64,000 bases of DNA from Acidimicrobiales bacterium (GCA_965116665.1 OZ220709.1:1940062-2004061); one strand, 5' to 3'; shown: positions 15,339 to 41,353, counted from the first letter of the stretch. Translations and numbers: made by a program. Notes: generated by a model from the sequence alone, not told the origin.

Positions 15339-17411
15339 ATGGCGCCGGTGACCGTTCCCAGCGACCGGCGGGCCTTCGAGGTGGTGGCCCCGTTCGAGCC
15401 CGCCGGCGACCAGCCCGGAGCCATCGAGGCGCTGGCCGAGGGCGTGGCCGAGGGGCACCGCTTCCAGACGCTGCTGGGCATCACCGGCTCGGGCAAGAGC
15501 GCCACCATCGCCTGGACCATCGAGCAGGCCCAAAGACCGACACTGGTTCTGGCCCCCAACAAGTCGCTGGCCGCCCAGCTGGCCAACGAGCTGCGGGAGC
15601 TGTTCCCGCACAACCGGGTGGAGTACTTCGTCAGCTACTACGACTACTACCAGCCCGAGGCGTACATGCCGGCCAGCGACACCTACATCGAGAAGGACTC
15701 GTCGGTGAACGACGAGATCGACCGGCTGCGCCACTCGGCCACGTCGGCCCTGCTCACCCGCCGCGACACCATCGTGGTGGCGTCGGTGTCGGCCATCTAC
15801 GGCCTGGGCTCGCCCGAGGAGTACGAGACCCAGCTGCTGGTGCTTCACGAGGGCGGCGAGTACGACCAGCGGTCGATACTGCGGCGCCTGGTGGACATGC
15901 AGTACGAGCGCAACGACATGAACCTGGTGCGGGGCAAGTTCCGGGTTCGGGGCGACACCATCGAGATCCATCCCGCCTACGACGAGACCCTGGTCCGGGT
16001 GGAGCTCTTCGGCGACGAGGTGGAGCGCATCACCGTGGTCGATCCGCTCACCGGCGAGCGGATCGAGACCCTCGAGGACCTGGTGGTGTTCCCGGCCACC
16101 CACTACGCCACCAGCGCGGCCCGGATGCAGGCCGCGGTCGAGCGCATCGAGGCGGAGCTGGCCGAGCGGCTGGCCCACTTCGAGGCCGAGGGCAAGCTGC
16201 TGGAGGCCCAGCGCCTGCAGATGCGCACCAGCTACGACCTGGAGATGATGGCCGAGCTGGGCTACTGCAACGGCATCGAGAACTACTCGGCGCCCATCGA
16301 CGGCCGGAGCCCGGGCGAGTCGCCGTACACGCTGCTCGACTACTTCCCCGGTGATTTCCTGATGGTGGTCGACGAGTCGCATGTGGCCGTGCCCCAGTTG
16401 CACGGCCAGTACGAGGGCGACCGTAGCCGCAAGGAGACCCTGATCGACCATGGCTTCCGGCTGCCGTCGGCGGCCGACAACCGGCCGCTGCGCTTCGACG
16501 AGGTGATGAGCCGGCTCAACCAGGTGATCTTCATGTCGGCCACGCCCGGGGCCTACGAGCTCGACGTGTCGGACCGGGTAGTGGAGCAGATCGTGCGGCC
16601 CACCGGCCTGGTGGATCCCGAGGTGGTGGTGAAGCCGACCAAGGGTCAGATCGACGACCTGCTGGACGAGATCTCGGCTCGCACGGACCGGGATCAGCGG
16701 GTGCTGGTGACCACCCTCACCAAGAAGATGGCCGAGGACCTGGCCGAGTACCTGCTGGAGCGGGGGCTGCGGGTGCGCTACCTGCACAGCGAGGTCGACA
16801 CCATCCAGCGCATCGAGATCCTGCGGGACCTCAGGCTGGGGGAGTTCGACGTGCTGGTCGGGATCAACCTGCTGCGGGAGGGCCTGGACCTGCCCGAGGT
16901 GTCGCTGGTGGCCATCCTCGACGCCGACAAGGAGGGCTTCCTGCGCAGCGAGACGTCGCTGATCCAGACCATCGGCCGGGCGGCCCGCAACGTCGACGGC
17001 CAGGTGATCATGTACGCCGACGAGGTGACCGACTCGATGCGCCGGGCCATCTCGGAGACGAACCGCCGCCGGGGCCTGCAGCAGGCCCACAACGAGGCCC
17101 ACGGGATCGATCCGACCACGATCCGCAAGGCGGTCACCGACATCCTGGCCATGATCCGGCCGGACCGCGACGGCGCTCCGGTGCCGGACGCCGACGTGGG
17201 CGGCGAATCGGGCGGGGGACTGGCCGAGGCCCGCCGCCGGCGGGAGGGCCCCGACCTGGGCGACCTGCCCGATGCCGAGCTGGAGCGCCTGATCCGCACG
17301 CTGGACGAGGAGATGCGCGAAGCCGCCGGCGACTTGCGATTCGAGTACGCGGCCCGCCTGCGCGACGAGATCAAGGACCTCCGCCGCGAACTAGCCGAGA
17401 TCCGCGGATAA
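15339..17411 (+). CDS. uvrB: excinuclease ABC subunit B
   Basis: 690 aa with GITGSGKS, helicase motifs, and the C-terminal UVR domain ([20 protein letters not shown]). Confidence 0.97.
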
Positions 17412-17440: not shown

Positions 17441-17707
17441 ATGCTGCCCTTCGTGACTGACACGCTCCCGTTCTCCGAGGTGAAGGCTCATCTCTCAGAG
17501 ATGGCCGATCGGGTGGAGCGTCAGCACGATCGCATCTTGGTGACCCGCAACGGCCGGCCCTCGTTCGTTCTGATGAGTCCCGACGACCTCGAATCGCTCG
17601 AGGAGACTCTCGACATCATGAGCGACCCGGAGCTGATGGAATCGATACGGGAGTCACGACGAGAAGCCGCCGATGGAAAGCTGCTGCGCCTGCGCGATCA
17701 CATCTGA
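17441..17707 (+). CDS. Phd/YefM-family antitoxin
   Basis: LPFSEVKAHLSEMADRVERQHDRILVTRNGRPSFVLMSPDDLESLEETLDI is the typical Phd/YefM sequence. Confidence 0.85.
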   Translation: MLPFVTDTLPFSEVKAHLSEMADRVERQHDRILVTRNGRPSFVLMSPDDLESLEETLDIMSDPELMESIRESRREAADGKLLRLRDHI

Positions 17708-17716
17708 GGGTCCTCG

Positions 17717-17980
17717 GTGTACGAGATCAAGATCGCGGCCGCGGGCCTCCGCCATCTCGACCGCCTGCCCGACAAGGTGCGCCAGGCCGCGCTGGAGACG
17801 ATCTTCGGCCCGATCGCCGAGAACCCTCATCGGGCCGGCAAGCCGCTCGGCGACGAACTCGAGGGATTGCGATCAGCTCGCCGCGGCGACTACCGCATCG
17901 TCTACGAGATCCTGGAGGACGAGTCGGTCGTCGTTGTCCACCGGGTCCAGCACCGCCGGCACGCCTACCGCCCAAGCTGA
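17717..17980 (+). CDS. RelE/ParE-family toxin
   Basis: 87 aa with a GTG start. LPDKVRQAALETIFGPIAENPHRAGKPL...GLRSARRGDYRIVYEILEDESVVVVHRVQHRRHAY is the RelE/ParE fold signature. Confidence 0.85.
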   Translation: MYEIKIAAAGLRHLDRLPDKVRQAALETIFGPIAENPHRAGKPLGDELEGLRSARRGDYRIVYEILEDESVVVVHRVQHRRHAYRPS

Positions 17981-18005: not shown

Positions 18006-20063
18006 TCAGCCGTCGGACAGTGCCCTTCCGAGAATCTGCAGCCGCTCCGCGGTCACCGTGGGCGAGCACGCCAGCACGTAGCCCGTTGCCTCTTCACCCT
18101 GGATCGCGCCGATCAGCGGCGACGCAAGCGACTTCAAGAGACCCCGTATTTGGTGTTCGGATGCGACAGGCTTTCCCGCCTCTCGATAGAGCCTGCCGTG
18201 GAGGTCGCGAGCCGTTCGTGGACCCAAGTGTTCAGCCTCTTCACGAATGGCATCCAGGAGCTGCCTTGAAAGCGCCACGAGCCGATTGGCTTCATCGAAC
18301 CTCTTACGAACAGCCGACAGGTCGGTCCGGCCGCCGCTCTCAAACAAGACCCTGTAGTGATCGAGCCCAGGTGGCTGCTCGGCGTGACGGAGGCACAGAT
18401 CCGCCAGTTCCTCCGCGGACAAGACAGCAACTCCCAACTCCTCTGCTCGATTGAACAGCCGTCTTCCCGATGGATTCGGCCCAATCAGCATCAGAAAGTC
18501 TGCAGCGTGATTCCTGCGGTGATCGTCAAGCGCTAGCCAGTCAAACCCTTCCCTCAGCCCTCCAGAGCCAGAAGTCTTGGCGTCGATGGCCACGCTAAAG
18601 CTCGCATCGCGCCCAAGTTGAGCCTCCAGTAAGACATCCGTACGCCCCGAGCCGCCGAGATGTCTCGCGTTGAATCCGAGGAATCGAAACGCATCACGCA
18701 CCACCAACTCGAACTGAGTGTGGTTTGCACTGTCCGTCGAGGAAGCAAGTATCCGATCGACTAGTTCAGCGACCCCTCCGTTCGACTGAGCCTGCTCATG
18801 GTCTGACATCGGATCGGGGGGCTGCGGCTCCTCCTCGACGATGCCGCTGCTGAGCGGCTCAGTCTGGGGCTGCGGATCGATTGGGGGTTGCACCGATACG
18901 TGCTCCAAGAAATCTGTGCCCTTGTCGGTCCGGTGCAGGTGTCGGCTGCGCTTGTCATACCGAATCAGCCCCGCGGACTGGAGCCAGCCTCTTCGGTTCT
19001 CGATTTGCGTGGAGGTTTGCCAGCCCATCGAGTACCGCTCGCATGCAAGGCGATGTAGTTCGACTGTGGTTGTAGGTTCCTGAAGCACGCTCAGCATCTC
19101 ACCGACGAACTGCGCACTGAGGTGCAGCTGCACGATCACCCGGGTCGAGTCCCCATCCCGCAGCCAGGACTTCATGAAGTCGGGAAGAACAACACTGCCA
19201 GATTCGATCCGAAGGAAGCCAACCTTTTGGAGGAAGCTCAGCCTTGTCTCGACCGAAGTGCCAGTCAGCTTGAACCGATTAGCCATCCTGTTGGCGAACT
19301 CCGCCCGTGTCGGCGGAGCCTCCTCCAGGCTCTCCGCCAACCAGCGCAGCGAGTCCATGTAACCGGCATAACCGCCGGGCATTGGCAGCACGCCGCTTGC
19401 CCGATCCTCCCACGAGACGTGTGCAGCTCGCCTCATCGCTTCCGTCGTAGCCCGGCGCACACCGAGGCCCCCGAATGACGGCTCGACCGCCACGCACTCC
19501 AGGAACGCAGTGCCCTTATCGGTGCGATACAGAACCCCGTCGTTCCGGCGTCCCATAAGGCCCGCTGATTGGAGCCAGCCTCTGCGGTGGTCGATTTGGT
19601 TGTTTGTGCTCCAGCCCATCAGATACTGCTGATTCGCGTAGTCACGGAGATCCGCGGTCGCCATCGGGGCGTCCAGTGCCTTCAACATCTCACCGACAAA
19701 CTGAATCTTCAGGTGCATCGTCACCAGAAGAGGGGTCGAGTCTCGATCCAACAGCCAAGTCTTGATGACTTGGGGAAGGTGCAGTCCCTTCGGGTCCTCT
19801 AGCAGGAATCCCACCTTCGTCAGATAGCCCACGCGCAACTCTGCTGACTTGGCGCTGATGCCGAGATGGTCAGCGGCCTGGACAACGAGCTCCACCTTCG
19901 GGAGCGAACCATCACGCAAGATGTCAGCCACCTGCCGAAGCGAGTCAAGGTACCCGCGATAGCCGCCAACCAGGGGCATTACGCCCTTCGTGCGACGGTT
20001 CCAAGGCACCTTGACCGGCTGCGAAGAGTCCCGTTCGGCCGCCACGACGCCCAACCGTAGCAA
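18006..20063 (-). CDS. Mrr-type PD-(D/E)xK restriction-endonuclease-like protein with tandemly duplicated N-terminal winged-helix module
   Basis: 685 aa. Residues ~20-200 and ~215-395 are clear paralogous repeats: VPWNRRTKGVMPLVGGYRGYLDSLR... vs VSWEDRASGVLPMPGGYAGYMDSLR..., and ...DHRRGWLQSAGLMGRRNDGVLYRTDKGTAFLE vs ENRRGWLQSAGLIRYDKRSRHLHRTDKGTDFLE. A P/Q/E linker follows, then FELVVRDAFRFLGFNARHLGGSGRTDVLLEA...SVAIDAKTS (Mrr catalytic-domain-like D...D-x-K). Sampled lines are 55-60% G+C against ~67% in uvrB. Confidence 0.7.
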   Translation of the reverse strand: MLRLGVVAAERDSSQPVKVPWNRRTKGVMPLVGGYRGYLDSLRQVADILRDGSLPKVELVVQAADHLGISAKSAELRVGYLTKVGFLLEDPKGLHLPQVIKTWLLDRDSTPLLVTMHLKIQFVGEMLKALDAPMATADLRDYANQQYLMGWSTNNQIDHRRGWLQSAGLMGRRNDGVLYRTDKGTAFLECVAVEPSFGGLGVRRATTEAMRRAAHVSWEDRASGVLPMPGGYAGYMDSLRWLAESLEEAPPTRAEFANRMANRFKLTGTSVETRLSFLQKVGFLRIESGSVVLPDFMKSWLRDGDSTRVIVQLHLSAQFVGEMLSVLQEPTTTVELHRLACERYSMGWQTSTQIENRRGWLQSAGLIRYDKRSRHLHRTDKGTDFLEHVSVQPPIDPQPQTEPLSSGIVEEEPQPPDPMSDHEQAQSNGGVAELVDRILASSTDSANHTQFELVVRDAFRFLGFNARHLGGSGRTDVLLEAQLGRDASFSVAIDAKTSGSGGLREGFDWLALDDHRRNHAADFLMLIGPNPSGRRLFNRAEELGVAVLSAEELADLCLRHAEQPPGLDHYRVLFESGGRTDLSAVRKRFDEANRLVALSRQLLDAIREEAEHLGPRTARDLHGRLYREAGKPVASEHQIRGLLKSLASPLIGAIQGEEATGYVLACSPTVTAERLQILGRALSDG

Positions 20064-20267: not shown

Positions 20268-20468
20268 GTGAAGAAGCGAGAACTCATGAGTCGCATCAGA
20301 TCAATGGCCAACACTGGTGGAGTCGACCTCAGGTTCGTTCGCCAGGGTGGCAGTCATGAGATCTGGACACTGGGAGGGAAGAGACTCGTGATCCCGCGCC
20401 ACAGGGAGATAAACGAGCGAACCGCCGAGGGCATCCTCGCGGATGCGAGACGGATCACCGGACAATGA
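20268..20468 (+). CDS. hicA: HicA toxin
   Basis: 66 aa with a GTG start. RFVRQGGSHEIWTLGGKRLVIPRHREINERTAEGIL is the HicA/YcfA motif. About 52% G+C. Confidence 0.85.
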   Translation: MKKRELMSRIRSMANTGGVDLRFVRQGGSHEIWTLGGKRLVIPRHREINERTAEGILADARRITGQ

Positions 20469-20863
20469 CGATGGATCCGACGCATCAGGGCTACCGGGTC
20501 GATGCGGTTCGCTCCGGCGACTGGTGGGCGATCAGCGTGCCGGACCTGCGGGGAGTCTTCTCGCAAGCCAAGCGCTTGAACCGGGTCGAGGCGACGGCCC
20601 GCGAGGCAATAGCGATGATGCTCGACATCGAAGAGTCAGAGGTTGGGAACATCGACGTGCAGGTGCAGCCTCCACAGGAGGTAGCGGGCCTTCTGGACGA
20701 GCTGCACCACTCCGTCTCGGTCGCCGAGGAAGCGAGCGCAACCGCAGCGAGGGCGAGGCGGGAGGCGGCGAAGTTGCTCCGCGACGCTGGGTTCCCGATG
20801 CGCGACATCGGGCAACTCCTAGGCGTGTCCCATCAGCGCGTCAGCCAGATCCTCGCCCAGTAG
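20465..20863 (+). CDS. hicB: HicB antitoxin with C-terminal HTH
   Basis: Overlaps hicA by 4 nt. The N-terminus is a HicB fold (YRVDAVRSGDWWAISVPDLRGVFSQAKRLNRVEATAREAIAMML). The C-terminus is RDIGQLLGVSHQRVSQIL. Confidence 0.8.
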   Translation: MTMDPTHQGYRVDAVRSGDWWAISVPDLRGVFSQAKRLNRVEATAREAIAMMLDIEESEVGNIDVQVQPPQEVAGLLDELHHSVSVAEEASATAARARREAAKLLRDAGFPMRDIGQLLGVSHQRVSQILAQ

Positions 20864-20975: not shown

Positions 20976-21419
20976 TCAGGTTGCTTCGAAGACCTCGGCG
21001 CCGCTCCAGCAAGTCACCGTGTCCGGGTCGACGGCGATGCCGCCGCCGCAGGTGCACTTCGGACGCTCGTCGTCGAGGAGGCGGCCGTCTGCGTCCCACA
21101 GTTGGAACGTGTGGGCGCGCAGGGGTTCGCGGACGACTCTGAGCCAGCGGCCGCGGCCTCTGGCAGTGAGGGCCTCTATCAGTGCCGAGACCAAGTCCGG
21201 CGGTGGCGGCTCGTTGGTCTTGATCAGGTAGAACGTCCCACCGATGCCGAGTTCGTGGGGGCCGTCCTCGTACCTGTCGAGGTAGTCCACCGTGCGCTGG
21301 GGGCTGTAATCCGGCGGCGGCACGCCGTCGAGGGTCAGGGTCTGGCGTCCATCGGTGCGCATCGAATACAGATTCACCGCAACCCACGAGTCGCGGCCGA
21401 AGGGAATGGTGCCGGTCAT
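20976..21419 (-). CDS. hypothetical protein (147 aa)
   Basis: A clean ORF, divergent from the HNH gene across an AT-rich 115-bp spacer. I recognise no motif. Confidence 0.5.
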   Translation of the reverse strand: MTGTIPFGRDSWVAVNLYSMRTDGRQTLTLDGVPPPDYSPQRTVDYLDRYEDGPHELGIGGTFYLIKTNEPPPPDLVSALIEALTARGRGRWLRVVREPLRAHTFQLWDADGRLLDDERPKCTCGGGIAVDPDTVTCWSGAEVFEAT

Positions 21420-21498: not shown

Positions 21499-21534
21499 TT
21501 GACAAATGTCACACCCCTATGGCAGTATGTGAAC
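21499..21534 (+). promoter_or_regulatory. candidate sigma-70-type promoter of the DUF222-HNH gene
   Basis: TTGACA (21499-21504), an 18-nt spacer, CAGTAT, then 6 nt to the ATG at 21535, in an AT-rich spacer. The track's TTG start at 21499 is this -35 box. Confidence 0.4.
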
Positions 21535-22824
21535 ATGGTGTTGGAAGCGGCGCAGCGGGTGCGGGAGGGTCTGGCGGAGTTGATCCGTTTGGTCAACTCC
21601 GGGAGCGCATCGACCGTCGATGCTCGGCGAGTGCTGTCGGAGTCGAAGGCGTTCGCGGCGCAGGTGGCGGTGTTGCAGGCCGATGCGGCTGCGCTGGTCG
21701 CCGCCGCAGAGCAACACGGCGACGGCGGGTCCGGGGTGCTGGCCCAGGCCGCGGGGCTGGCCCGTAGGGATGCAGCCGTGCAGGTCAAGACCGTCGAGCA
21801 ACTGCAGTCGATGCCCGGCCTGCGCGATGCGGTGACGGGCGGCGAGATCCCGATGGCCAACGGCAAGACCCTCGCTCAGGCCTCAGAGAAGACCAGCGCT
21901 GATCAGGTCCGGCAGGACGGCGACCTGCTCGAGAAGGCCGCGTCGCTGTCGCCGGAGCAGTTCGTACGGGAGGCGAACCGGTGGGCCGCGCAGCGCCAGG
22001 ACGACGGCGGGGAGAGCTCCTACCGGCGTCAGCGGGCCCGCCGCCGGCTAAGTATCTGGACGGACGACGGCGACGGCATGGTCCATCTGCGGGGCGAACT
22101 CGATCCCGTAGCCGGAGCCAGGCTGCACAAGCGGCTCCTGAAGGAGGCCGAGCGGCTGCGACGATGCGACCTAAACAGGCCCGGCGGTGAGAAGCGCAGC
22201 CTCCGGCAGCGCCTTGCCGACGCACTGGACACGCTTAGTGCGACCGGCTCGAGTGGGGGGACCAGGGGGGCGCCTTCGGCTGACATCGCCATCGTGCAGC
22301 ATCTGGACCCGGACGGCGACAAGGCGTTCGCAGAGGTCGCCGGGGGCGGGGTGATCCCCCAGAGCGTGCTCGAGGAGCACTTCTGCAACGCCAGGATCGT
22401 GGGCGTGGTCTACAGCAGCAAGGGCGTGCCGTTGTGGCGGGGCCCGGCGCTGCCGCGGCCCACCAAGGCCCAGATGGACGCGCTGATCGCCCGCTACGGC
22501 GGATGCGGAGGCTGCAACGAGCACTACGCGGTGTGCCAGGCCCACCACATACGGCCCCGCTCTCAGGGCGGCCCGACTGACATCGACAATCTGATGCTGC
22601 TGTGCTGGGGGTGCCACGACAAGGTCCACCACCACGGCTGGCGAGTCGTGCCCAATGGCGACTTGCACACGATCGCGCCCCCCGAGCGCATCCGTCATGG
22701 CCCCGCCCGGGCGCCCGACCCGCCCCTGATCCACGGCCCGCCATGCCGTGGCTCATCGGGCGGCCGGCAATTGCCCGCTCGGGCGCCGACCTGGAACCCG
22801 ATCGTGTCGCCGCAGCTATGGTGA
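21535..22824 (+). CDS. DUF222 + HNH endonuclease (REP13E12-like family of Actinobacteria)
   Basis: C-terminal CGGCNEHYAVCQAHHIRPRSQGGPTDIDNLMLLCWGCHDKVHHHGW, preceded by the long helical N-terminal region typical of this family. Confidence 0.85.
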   Translation: MVLEAAQRVREGLAELIRLVNSGSASTVDARRVLSESKAFAAQVAVLQADAAALVAAAEQHGDGGSGVLAQAAGLARRDAAVQVKTVEQLQSMPGLRDAVTGGEIPMANGKTLAQASEKTSADQVRQDGDLLEKAASLSPEQFVREANRWAAQRQDDGGESSYRRQRARRRLSIWTDDGDGMVHLRGELDPVAGARLHKRLLKEAERLRRCDLNRPGGEKRSLRQRLADALDTLSATGSSGGTRGAPSADIAIVQHLDPDGDKAFAEVAGGGVIPQSVLEEHFCNARIVGVVYSSKGVPLWRGPALPRPTKAQMDALIARYGGCGGCNEHYAVCQAHHIRPRSQGGPTDIDNLMLLCWGCHDKVHHHGWRVVPNGDLHTIAPPERIRHGPARAPDPPLIHGPPCRGSSGGRQLPARAPTWNPIVSPQLW

Positions 22825-23213: not shown

Positions 23214-24020
23214 ATGATCGGGGACGTGGCTGGCTCCCTGACAGCCGACTCGCATGCGCCCCGGCCGGAGGCGTCCGTGGCGACCGTGAGCGATATCGGG
23301 CCTCGGCGGGTGAACGAGGACCGGGCGCTGGCAGTGCTGAACGAGGACGACGGCAGCTGGGTCATCGCAGTGGCCGACGGGCTGGGCGGGCACACCCGCG
23401 GCGATGAGGCGGCCCAAGCTGCGATCGACGGGCTGCCCCGGCGGATTGCCAACGCCGACGAGATGGCGGTCGCCTTCGGGGAGGCCAACGAGCGGGTACT
23501 CGCGCTGACCGGCCCGGAAGACTGGCAGCGACGCCTGCCGCTGTTCATGTTTCCGATGAGCACCCTGACCGTGGCCTCCTGGACCCCCGAGGGCGGTCTC
23601 CTGATCGGTTGGATGGGCGACACGCTGCCGTTCGTGGCCACCGCCGGACCCGACGGCTTCTCGGGGTCCTGCTGCGGCCGGCCCCACCGGCAACCCGGCG
23701 GCAGCATCGACATCTGCCTGGGGATGCCGCCCATGGATGCCGAGGCCGGAGCCGGGTTCGTCGAGGTCGAGATGGTGGGGGAGTCCGGTGAAGGGTCACG
23801 GCCCGACGCGGTGATTCTCGCCAGCGACGGCGCCTGGGAGCCCTTCGTGTACCGGCACGGCACCGACTGGCTGTCGGACGACACCGCCACGGGCGGCATG
23901 GGCGCGGCCTGCGGACCCAGCGCCGACACTGCCGAGGACGTAGCCAAACACGTCCTGGCCGAGGCACTGGACTTGGGCCTCAACGACAACGCCACCATCG
24001 CAGTCGCCCTCTGGCGCTGA
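23214..24020 (+). CDS. PP2C-family Ser/Thr protein phosphatase
   Basis: VSDIGPRRVNEDR, VADGLGGHTRGDEAA, ILASDGAWEPF and NDNATIAVAL are the PP2C metal-binding motifs. Confidence 0.8.
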   Translation: MIGDVAGSLTADSHAPRPEASVATVSDIGPRRVNEDRALAVLNEDDGSWVIAVADGLGGHTRGDEAAQAAIDGLPRRIANADEMAVAFGEANERVLALTGPEDWQRRLPLFMFPMSTLTVASWTPEGGLLIGWMGDTLPFVATAGPDGFSGSCCGRPHRQPGGSIDICLGMPPMDAEAGAGFVEVEMVGESGEGSRPDAVILASDGAWEPFVYRHGTDWLSDDTATGGMGAACGPSADTAEDVAKHVLAEALDLGLNDNATIAVALWR

Positions 24021-41251: not shown

Positions 41252-41336
41252 GTCGGAGTGGCGGAATTGGCAGACGCGCTAGCTTGAGGGGCTAGTGCCC
41301 AGATTGGGCGTGGGGGTTCAAGTCCCCCCTCCGACA
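41252..41336 (+). tRNA. tRNA-Leu (anticodon GAG), long variable arm
   Basis: Folded by hand. The acceptor is GTCGGAG/CTCCGAC. The anticodon stem CTAGC/GCTAG has loop TTGAGGG (anticodon GAG). There is a long variable arm, the T-arm is GGGGG-TTCAAGT-CCCCC, and the discriminator is A. Confidence 0.9.
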
Positions 41337-41353
41337 CTAATATAATACAAAAA

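Follow-up and report, generated by a model that had tools for sequence, protein, structure and literature searches.

Among restriction enzymes of modular build, BpuJI has a recognition domain made up of two winged-helix (wH) subdomains and an N-terminal arm; its target is a 5-bp site in unmodified form, and cognate methyltransferases exist for it. In modification-dependent restriction, the EVE domain is an established reader of modified bases, and in McrBC systems the N-terminal position of McrB holds a reader of DNA or of its modifications. Endonucleases that sense N6-methyladenine (6mA), such as DpnI, HhiV4I, FcyTI and others, combine a wH with restriction-type nucleases, exist in both PUA-wH-nuclease and PD-(D/E)XK-wH orders, and rarely have methyltransferase genes nearby (Helbrecht et al. 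2024, PMC11037411). The END nucleases, which are related to Type IIS enzymes and lack a methyltransferase, join a PLD nuclease to an inactive EndoIII sensor for single-gene defence against hypermodified phage DNA, and this sensor is also fused to other nucleases and to McrB-like GTPases (PMC12191111, preprint). The same modular logic is described in four publications (Lutz 2019, PMC6765204; Helbrecht 2024, PMC11037411; Bell 2020, PMC7641849; the END preprint, PMC12191111), none of which describes the reader module or the nuclease family dealt with here. The gene through which we approach them lies in a 64,000-nucleotide stretch of the genome of an Acidimicrobiales bacterium (GCA_965116665.1 OZ220709.1:1940062-2004061; the window, in what follows). 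It is a complete coding sequence (CDS) for a protein of 685 amino acids (aa), in which a duplicated double-wH module is followed by a linker, a nuclease domain and a further wH (Table 1).

The balance of the evidence leans towards a stand-alone restriction-type endonuclease that is Type IIS-like in its build and Type IV-like, i.e. modification-dependent, in its use. An earlier reading of the same DNA, made without database searches (the sequence-only reading), had already proposed a type IV-like single-gene defence nuclease. This is the most plausible role for the gene, and it is strengthened by relatives in which the module follows an EVE domain, by a module-McrB fusion beside McrC, by copies on plasmids and in a transposon, and by hypervariable alleles at a fixed locus.

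Domain architecture of the protein

The N-terminal half of the protein holds an internal repeat far beyond chance: residues 19-195 and 216-393 align at 46% identity over 178 aa with a single gap (BLASTP E=2e-55). This bears out the tandem duplication of a double-wH module claimed in the sequence-only reading, whose quoted motifs are all present. Since sequence searches of the PDB gave no usable relative (no match by phmmer with the whole protein, chance-level matches with a family profile), the fold was taken from AlphaFold2 (AF2) models, predicted from family alignments for the two halves (aa 1-420 and aa 425-685), and from Foldseek searches with these models. In the N-terminal model (predicted local distance difference test, pLDDT, 89.2; predicted template modelling score, pTM, 0.57), each of the two modules, D1 and D2, consists of a structured N-terminal arm (N-arm) followed by two H-H-H-beta-beta units, i.e. 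two winged helices, and the pTM value suggests that D1 and D2 are not fixed relative to each other. The recognition domain of BpuJI ranks first when this half is compared with the PDB (E=2e-4, ~247 columns, 12% identity), with further matches to the tandem-wH arrays of SelB and RPC62, to FokI (1.4-2.1e-3) and, more weakly, to the nickase N.BspD6I (3e-2), all at low TM-scores (0.15-0.38; BpuJI 0.26-0.38). By its predicted fold, the N-terminal half is established as a tandem-wH array of the DNA-binding type, as had been supposed of its repeats, and a particular kinship of the modules with Type IIS recognition domains (BpuJI, FokI) is no more than suggestive at the level of the model. The resemblance to the N-terminal reader domain of Mrr that had been seen in the second unit of each repeat is not supported: neither module of the window protein matches Mrr_N (PF14338) at E<=1, and in relatives the domain is found below threshold in 4 of the 74 scanned (e.g. 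P0024, aa 137-172, 21.9 bits vs a cut-off of 29.5).

Among viral structures, the N-terminal model is matched best by a protein of a phage, Siphoviridae sp. ctDXu9 (BFVD A0A8S5VCW0; E=2.4e-5, 25% identity over 150 columns, TMt 0.56). At 187 aa it has the size of one module and no nuclease, and it could be a decoy or a regulator.

Between the modules and the nuclease lies the P/Q/E linker that had been read from the sequence (aa ~396-427, pLDDT ~53). The C-terminal half, in which the motifs FELVVRDAF...GRTDVLL...AIDAKTS are read, is modelled with a pLDDT of 92.5 and a pTM of 0.88, and its best structural matches are HindIII (2e52, E=1e-6) and FokI (2fok/1fok, E=2e-6 to 9e-6, 181-198 aligned columns at a root mean square deviation of 3.9-6.1), with matches to the modification-dependent enzymes AspBHI (9e-4) and MspJI (5e-3) as well. 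As modelled, the nuclease fold is closer to FokI/HindIII than to Mrr, so that the Mrr-type core of the sequence-only reading has to be replaced by a FokI/HindIII-like one; the window protein reaches 13.9 bits against Mrr_cat (PF04471), under the cut-off of 21. A relatedness of the family to Mrr_cat at the superfamily level is real as judged from profile matches, which 55 of 74 relatives give at E<=0.01 (best 2.7e-7). The FokI cleavage domain of Pfam (FokI_cleav_dom, PF09254) gives 12.4 bits and E=0.11 with the window protein, under the gathering cut-off of 25, and its precomputed matches in relatives are weak or faint.

The catalytic residues can be placed. In alignments by BLASTP and with hidden Markov models (HMMs), D476, D494 and K496 fall on D450, D467 and K469 of FokI, whose sequence was checked against the published residue numbering, and an HLGGS motif is common to both. 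E452, D476, D/E494 and K496 are kept in 209-212 of 215 family members (at least 97%), and because of this conservation the nuclease is predicted to be almost certainly active; the D...D-x-K arrangement noticed earlier is thus intact. The tail of ~170 aa that had been described as helical is present, but its make-up is mixed: it comprises the rest of the FokI-like domain (to ~aa 582), a helix (aa 583-613) and a fifth wH (aa 618-683), the last with Foldseek matches at ranks 20-50 to Z-alpha, linker histone, PadR and the cullin WHB.

A group of matches on haloarchaeal plasmids (H7-H12, from Halobacterium, Haloarcula, Halorubrum, Halorussus and Natrialbaceae) aligns to aa ~426-684 of the query at 23-28% identity and consists of nuclease and tail alone. 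Because these proteins match those parts only, the FokI-like nuclease with its C-terminal wH appears to circulate apart from the module.

The wider family and its use of the module

A word-indexed search found 174 relatives. With one module as the query, phmmer was run exhaustively on 1.84 billion representative proteins and gave 390 clusters (at 50% identity) at E<=1e-3, of which 201 reach E<=1e-10. When 267 retrieved proteins were sorted with our own HMMs for module, nuclease and tail, the most frequent orders were N-terminal extension-module-nuclease-tail (81), module-nuclease-tail (67) and module-module-nuclease-tail (56). The rest were other two-module proteins, partly truncated (14), proteins with an N-terminal extension and a module, with or without a nuclease and without the tail, mostly shorter than 560 aa (10), one nuclease-module-nuclease-tail protein, and other single-module proteins without nuclease and/or tail, mostly fragments (38). 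Two modules are thus found in ~70 of the 267 and an N-terminal extension in ~90, and from these counts the conserved core of the family is one module with nuclease and tail, the doubled reader being a frequent variant. The earlier claim of an undescribed architecture stands for the literature searched, where it is uncharacterised, but not for the databases, where it is common and includes RefSeq plasmid genes labelled 'restriction endonuclease'; other members are publicly annotated as 'EVE domain-containing protein' or 'hypothetical protein'.

Evidence for the use of the module as a reader comes from what it is joined to and from how it is conserved. Specifically, the N-terminal extension, where checked, is an EVE domain, which a scan of 74 aligned members detected in 30 (best E=7e-14), and in this largest sub-family EVE stands ahead of the module, in the place held by D1 in the window protein. 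In P0148 (locus L047), the module forms the N-terminus of an McrB-type GTPase (AAA_5 and McrB_lid), the gene of which overlaps an McrC gene. Within the module, the most conserved parts are the recognition helix of the second wH (wH-b; TQIxNRRGWLQS, mean entropy 0.75) and the N-arm (WxxRxxGVxPMPGG, 1.14), and the most variable are the wing tip and the non-contact helix; such conservation of the predicted reading elements fits a ligand feature common to the family better than a freely varying sequence specificity. Together, the EVE fusions, the McrB fusion and the conservation point to the module as a DNA reader used in type IV restriction.

Module duplication has, by sequence comparison, occurred at least twice. 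In a distant clade, which takes in plasmid genes of Priestia, Bacillus, Staphylococcus and Gordonia and a chromosomal gene of Streptosporangium, identity between the two modules of one protein is 17-30% and modules cluster by position, D1 with D1 and D2 with D2, which argues for one old duplication, and in the clade of the window protein the two modules are 40-60% identical. Among genome representatives, carriers of the family are overwhelmingly Acidimicrobiia, including Ca. Aldehydirespirator (the closest), Ilumatobacteraceae and the sponge-associated Ca. Poriferisocius and Poriferisodalis, with a few further carriers in Micromonospora, Streptosporangium, Nitriliruptoria and Dehalococcoidia, in a genome scan that was seeded from one alignment and one peptide pattern and was not exhaustive.

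The neighbourhoods were surveyed with a crude gene caller in a census of two genes on each side of 37 independent loci. Defence and mobile genes recur among these neighbours, such as PIN, HicA and AbiEii toxins, HNH nucleases, AAA_21/AriA/PtuA-like ATPases and integrases, and no family of DNA methyltransferases is found in more than one of the 147 flanking genes. On plasmids, the Priestia copy lies beside an ABC-three-component system (ABC-3C), an AbiH gene and an integrase, the Gordonia copy directly after the tnsA/tnsB/AAA genes of a Tn7-like element, and the Staphylococcus copy between an Fst toxin and a recombinase. A putative conserved partner gene (~395-400 aa, directly upstream in many loci) was rejected, being an amidohydrolase in one genus, where synteny is shared, and unrelated TPR, aminotransferase and pentapeptide proteins elsewhere.

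Adjacency to toxin-antitoxin (TA) pairs recurs across clades: MazEF is close to the Gordonia plasmid copy, and in the P0016/P0018 group (L004:9566-10083; L052:9846-10402) a small gene and a PemK/MazF toxin gene come after each single-module homologue. A small HhH-GPD (EndoIII-superfamily) gene lies directly upstream of a single-module nuclease in L009 (8689-9261), with like genes in L008 and L010-L012. It is co-oriented with the nuclease at a gap of ~38 nt, and there are six such neighbours in the census. In view of the inactivated EndoIII domain by which END nucleases sense hypermodification, the gene could provide a sensor in trans, or its position could be no more than synteny inside a single genus. 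In two of these Acidimicrobiia loci, a second module-bearing gene directly follows the single-module nuclease (L008:11247-12311; L009:11740-12996), with one module (aa 9-190 and aa 74-254, respectively) and a C-terminal region of ~170 aa without a Pfam match, and these second genes may be paralogues with a different effector.

A few members depart further from the common plan. The metagenomic P0146 (1085 aa) combines an ADP-ribosylglycohydrolase, a dual-specificity phosphatase, EVE, the module and Mrr_cat, and is either a real multi-effector defence protein or a fusion made in gene calling. P0222 (998 aa) has a sigma-70 region 2 domain after its module, and P0040 (705 aa) is the protein with an extra nuclease core ahead of the module. 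A metagenome-assembled genome (CAXXMY01) holds, on contigs L022 and L024, two family members of equal length (567 aa), domain coordinates and G+C content at third codon positions (GC3), a likeness in these three respects which suggests a duplicated or mobile segment.

The uvrB-uvrA locus and its mosaic alleles

As the sequence-only reading had it, the gene sits between a Phd/RelE pair and HicAB with no methyltransferase nearby, and none is found among the flanking genes of the window from rpsA to uvrA. A family member occupies the same position, in the same orientation, in five related genomes (L001, L002, L003, L034 and L054), between uvrB and a block composed of a conserved hypothetical gene (hyp147), DUF222-HNH, a PP2C-like gene and uvrA. 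The Phd and ParE/RelE pair is present at this locus in L001, L002 and L054, and L034 has a Phd match alone. The flank identities to the window copies, listed in Table 1, come from L001-L003 and L034, L054 having been left out of the flank comparison. At the DNA level, the flanks are 87-92% identical and the nuclease gene aligns in part only, at 63-73%.

The alleles are mosaics. P0002 is 97% identical to the window protein in D1 and 87% in D2, compared with 60% in the nuclease and 54% in the tail, and the single-module P0014 is 69-71% identical in nuclease and tail and 43-45% in the module. Among the close relatives P0002-P0008, D2 is 74-87% identical, D1 splits into several unrelated groups, and the D1 of P0005 matches the module found in single-module proteins at 86% identity; the L034 nuclease has a single module. 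By these alignments, D1 is the distal, fast-evolving and swapped copy.

Composition adds to this picture. The G+C content of the gene is 61.0% vs 69.1% for uvrB and 68.6% for the whole window, with a GC3 of 0.71 vs 0.95 for uvrB. The hand counts of 55-60% made earlier were therefore slightly low and qualitatively right, but the conclusion drawn from them, that the gene is foreign, has to be changed: GC3 of the family member is lower than that of its neighbours in 42 of 46 loci, and the signal is a family-wide trait at a long-standing variable locus. A one-off foreign insertion was rejected on two grounds, namely the shared synteny of the gene in at least five related genomes and the low GC3 found throughout the family. 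Taken together, divergence, mosaicism and GC3 look like cassette exchange in a gene pool under diversifying pressure, which is typical of defence genes and not of a housekeeping repair factor or a single recent insertion.

The uvrB-uvrA interval as a whole is a small variable island, and relatives differ in whether they have Phd/ParE, HicAB, an IS481-type transposase or an AAA_14 gene (the last two in L001). The genes hyp147, DUF222-HNH and PP2C are steadier within it, and ParE (59-64%) is nearly as divergent as the nuclease.

The nuclease gene starts with TTG, with GGAGG 13 nt 5' of the start. No terminator-like (intrinsic) site was found around the gene, and no promoter-like site on its strand or in the intergenic region towards hicA; three matches to the promoter consensus are all on the plus strand, near the Phd start and at ~20907. 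The sole RNA gene detected in the window, tRNA-Leu(GAG) at 41252-41337, is distant from the nuclease locus and unrelated to it.

Table 1. Features of the nuclease gene and its surroundings in the window, with amino acid identity of related genomes to the window copy. ORF, open reading frame.
Feature	Position	Strand	Evidence or remark	Identity to window copy
uvrB, left anchor of variable locus	15339..17411	+		92-94%
Phd antitoxin	17441-17707	+	family scan, E=5e-21	80-85%
ParE/RelE-superfamily toxin	17717-17980	+	family scan, E=1.5e-11	59-64%
Nuclease, complete CDS, 685 aa and stop, TTG start	18006..20063	-	ORF and GGAGG	52-63% (52-61% in four measured genomes; 63% is P0004, the L054 allele)
Module D1, aa 17-197, N-arm VPWNRRTKGVMPLVGGY	19473..20015	-	repeat alignment, AF2, own HMM
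D1 winged helices, wH-a ~aa 38-95 and wH-b ~aa 110-188	within 19473..20015	-	AF2 secondary structure
Inter-module linker, aa 198-213	19425..19472	-	AF2, low pLDDT
Module D2, aa 214-395, N-arm VSWEDRASGVLPMPGGY, nuclease-proximal copy	18879..19424	-	repeat alignment, AF2, Foldseek
D2 winged helices, wH-a aa 232-292 and wH-b aa 307-386, predicted recognition helix TQIENRRGWLQS	within 18879..19424	-	AF2, conservation
P/Q/E-rich linker, predicted disordered, aa 396-427	18783..18878	-	AF2 (pLDDT 53-54) and sequence
Predicted FokI/HindIII-like PD-(D/E)xK cleavage domain, aa 428-582	18318..18782	-	AF2 (pLDDT 92.5), Foldseek, FokI alignment
E452 codon, acidic residue of first core helix (FELVV)	18708..18710	-	kept in 211/215 members
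D476 codon (GRTDVLL), aligned to FokI D450	18636..18638	-	kept in 210/215
D494-A-K496 codons (AIDAKT), aligned to FokI D467-T-K469	18576..18584	-	D/E in 209/215, K in 212/215
Long alpha-helix joining nuclease to C-terminal wH, aa 583-613	18225..18317	-	AF2
Predicted fifth winged helix, C-terminal, aa 618-685	18009..18212	-	DSSP (H-H-beta-beta-H) and Foldseek
HicA toxin, divergent from nuclease	20268-20468	+	family scan; also in L034	85-89%, HicA/HicB (L034 only)
HicB antitoxin, divergent from nuclease	20465-20863	+	family scan; also in L034	85-89%, HicA/HicB (L034 only)
hyp147, conserved hypothetical 147-aa gene	20976-21419	-		79-84%
DUF222-HNH	21499-22824	+		58-79%
PP2C-like gene	23214-24020	+		76-79%
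uvrA	from ~24170		right flank of island

Proposed mode of action, competing explanations and known systems

As a Type IIS-like enzyme put to Type IV-like use, the protein would bind DNA through its two tandem modules, and the flexible P/Q/E linker, which tethers them to a FokI-type domain with one predicted active site (E452, D476, D494, K496), would let this domain reach DNA at a distance. By analogy with FokI, pairing with a second cleavage domain is probably required to cut both strands, away from the bound site, and the C-terminal wH may add a further contact with DNA or within the dimer. The modules would recognise a feature absent from the DNA of the host, most likely a base modification or hypermodification of phages or plasmids, and because there is no partner methyltransferase, self-DNA is probably spared through the absence of that feature. 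A second module may lengthen the recognised feature or demand two marks at once, and it is the part that is swapped fastest between alleles.

Several points weigh against this view of the enzyme. The closest structural analogues of the module, BpuJI and FokI, read unmodified sequences, and since the TM-scores are low, the likeness to them may be just that of the tandem-wH arrangement. Family scans detected no PUA/EVE/SRA/YTH domain or DpnI-type wH in the window protein, and no DpnI-type structure is among the top 50 Foldseek matches of either half. PADLOC-DB v2 gives no significant match (REase_II PDLC03477 reaches E=0.002 and 14.8 bits over aa 434-499), and all matches of the window protein in the Pfam, NCBIfam and PADLOC scans, including a LexA-type wH, are sub-threshold. 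The module-McrB fusion is a single example. The census, with its two genes per side and crude gene calls, also holds many ordinary metabolic neighbours, and the three plasmid contexts, in which no methyltransferase is listed, have incomplete gene tables. No full-length homologue encoded by a phage was found, nor a direct link to phages. What the data show directly are the repeat, the modelled folds, the intact catalytic residues aligned to those of FokI, the architectures in the family, the contexts of the genes and the hypervariability; DNA binding by the modules, cleavage as a dimer, modification dependence and a defence role are, for every member of the family, what we infer.

A bolder version, which we put forward tentatively and regard as rather doubtful, would join these elements. 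The module, with its conserved N-arm, would represent a sensor class of its own for DNA that is modified or hypermodified, without kinship to the readers of the PUA superfamily or to the wH of DpnI type, and bacteria would deploy it once, twice, behind EVE or on McrB. Two-module enzymes would be coincidence detectors, which require two marks or a bipartite site before the FokI-like domains pair, and the uvrB-uvrA locus of Aldehydirespirator-like Acidimicrobiia would be a hotspot in which reader and nuclease cassettes are reshuffled under phage pressure.

The alternative that survives best, unlikely as it is, is a genuine Type IIS-style enzyme for unmodified DNA, with a host guarded by a distant methyltransferase or by avoidance of a long two-module site. 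The best structural matches of the module are indeed the recognition domains of BpuJI, FokI and N.BspD6I, the cleavage domain matches FokI/HindIII, and the swapping of D1 resembles the shuffling of target-recognition domains. However, no methyltransferase family recurs in the 147 neighbours of the 37 loci and none is seen in the three plasmid contexts or in the window, fusions with EVE and McrB speak for use in type IV systems, and conservation within the module peaks in the predicted reading helix, which sets it apart from recognition domains of variable specificity.

Of lower probability again is an abortive-infection or toxin-like nuclease that infection or stress would release from an inactive state to degrade DNA with low specificity, the winged helices serving as general anchors or regulators. 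Such a role would suit the repeated adjacency to TA genes (Phd/ParE, HicAB, PemK, MazEF, Fst and PIN) and the AbiEii, AbiH and AriA-like genes nearby, but the protein has no sensor or regulatory domain besides its winged helices, no conserved partner gene accompanies it (the ~395-aa upstream candidate being a set of unrelated proteins), and fusions to EVE and McrB are typical of direct restriction.

A housekeeping nuclease that works with UvrABC in repair or recombination is very improbable and was already disfavoured. The position between uvrB and uvrA/uvrC is kept in at least five related genomes, yet the nuclease is the most divergent gene of the region (52-61% vs 92-94% for uvrB), varies between one and two modules, is mosaic and deviant in GC3, and has plasmid and transposon copies, while homologues of other lineages are not near uvr genes; a functional link to UvrABC was rejected on the divergence, the mosaicism and this missing synteny. 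Hardly credible, finally, is a DNA-binding regulator or domesticated protein with an inactive nuclease domain, for which five predicted winged helices, a fold typical of transcription factors, and weak LexA_DNA_bind and MarR-like matches can be cited, against an active site that aligns with that of FokI and whose four residues (E, D, D/E, K) persist in at least 97% of members, the window protein included.

If the preferred reading of a Type IIS-like, modification-dependent nuclease is true, the family would be a sizeable one of single-gene restriction nucleases (~390 clusters), mainly of Acidimicrobiia and other Actinomycetota, but also on Firmicute, Gordonia and haloarchaeal plasmids, with a reader domain that is absent from Pfam and PADLOC. 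The ligand of the module could add a sensor to the modification-dependent enzymes used in epigenome mapping, and a natural FokI-type cleavage domain with a compact, repeatable and predicted DNA-binding module would be of interest for the engineering of programmable nucleases. The allelic series at one locus, with near-identical flanks around mosaic nucleases of 52-63% identity, would show how defence genes diversify by swaps of domain cassettes. For specialists in restriction enzymes, the points of value would be a reader module without a name, the combinations in which it is used and the mosaic alleles. Established concepts are not challenged by any of this; what it extends is the modular logic already known from Type IIS and Type IV enzymes.

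Among the systems to which the protein can be compared, FokI (1FOK/2FOK) shares with it a wH-like recognition array at the N-terminus, a linker and a C-terminal PD-(D/E)xK domain with a single active site. The window nuclease differs in that it has no adjacent methyltransferase, that its reader is a repeated and conserved two-wH module instead of the D1-D3 subdomains of FokI, that a long helix and a wH follow the nuclease, that the sequence similarity is marginal and that its relatives carry EVE or McrB fusions. The recognition domain of BpuJI (2VLA) is the best structural match of the N-terminal half, and its layout is that of one module here, but BpuJI has a nuclease of the Holliday-junction-resolvase type, in contrast to the FokI-like one of the window protein. 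The Type IIS layout, i.e. separate recognition and cleavage domains joined by a disordered linker, is found in the AF2 models, and unlike Type IIS restriction-modification systems there is no cognate methyltransferase alongside.

The modular Type IV enzymes, such as MspJI and AspBHI (SRA-PD-(D/E)xK), the EVE-HNH enzymes VcaM4I and TspA15I, and Mrr, are likewise stand-alone proteins without a methyltransferase and on a reader-linker-nuclease plan. The nuclease domains of MspJI and AspBHI match structurally and many relatives of the window protein carry EVE before the module, but the protein itself has, in place of a PUA-superfamily reader, an unnamed tandem-wH module, present twice. The 6mA-sensing enzymes use a single DpnI-type wH, whereas here a fixed pair of winged helices with a conserved N-arm is repeated and joined to a FokI-like nuclease. 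The END nucleases follow the same logic without homology, having a PLD nuclease instead of PD-(D/E)xK and an HhH-GPD instead of a tandem-wH sensor. In McrBC terms, the module of P0148 fills the N-terminal reader position of McrB, while the window protein has no NTPase and its nuclease is fused straight to the reader. The protein is a hybrid in character, FokI/BpuJI in its layout and Type IV in its genetics.

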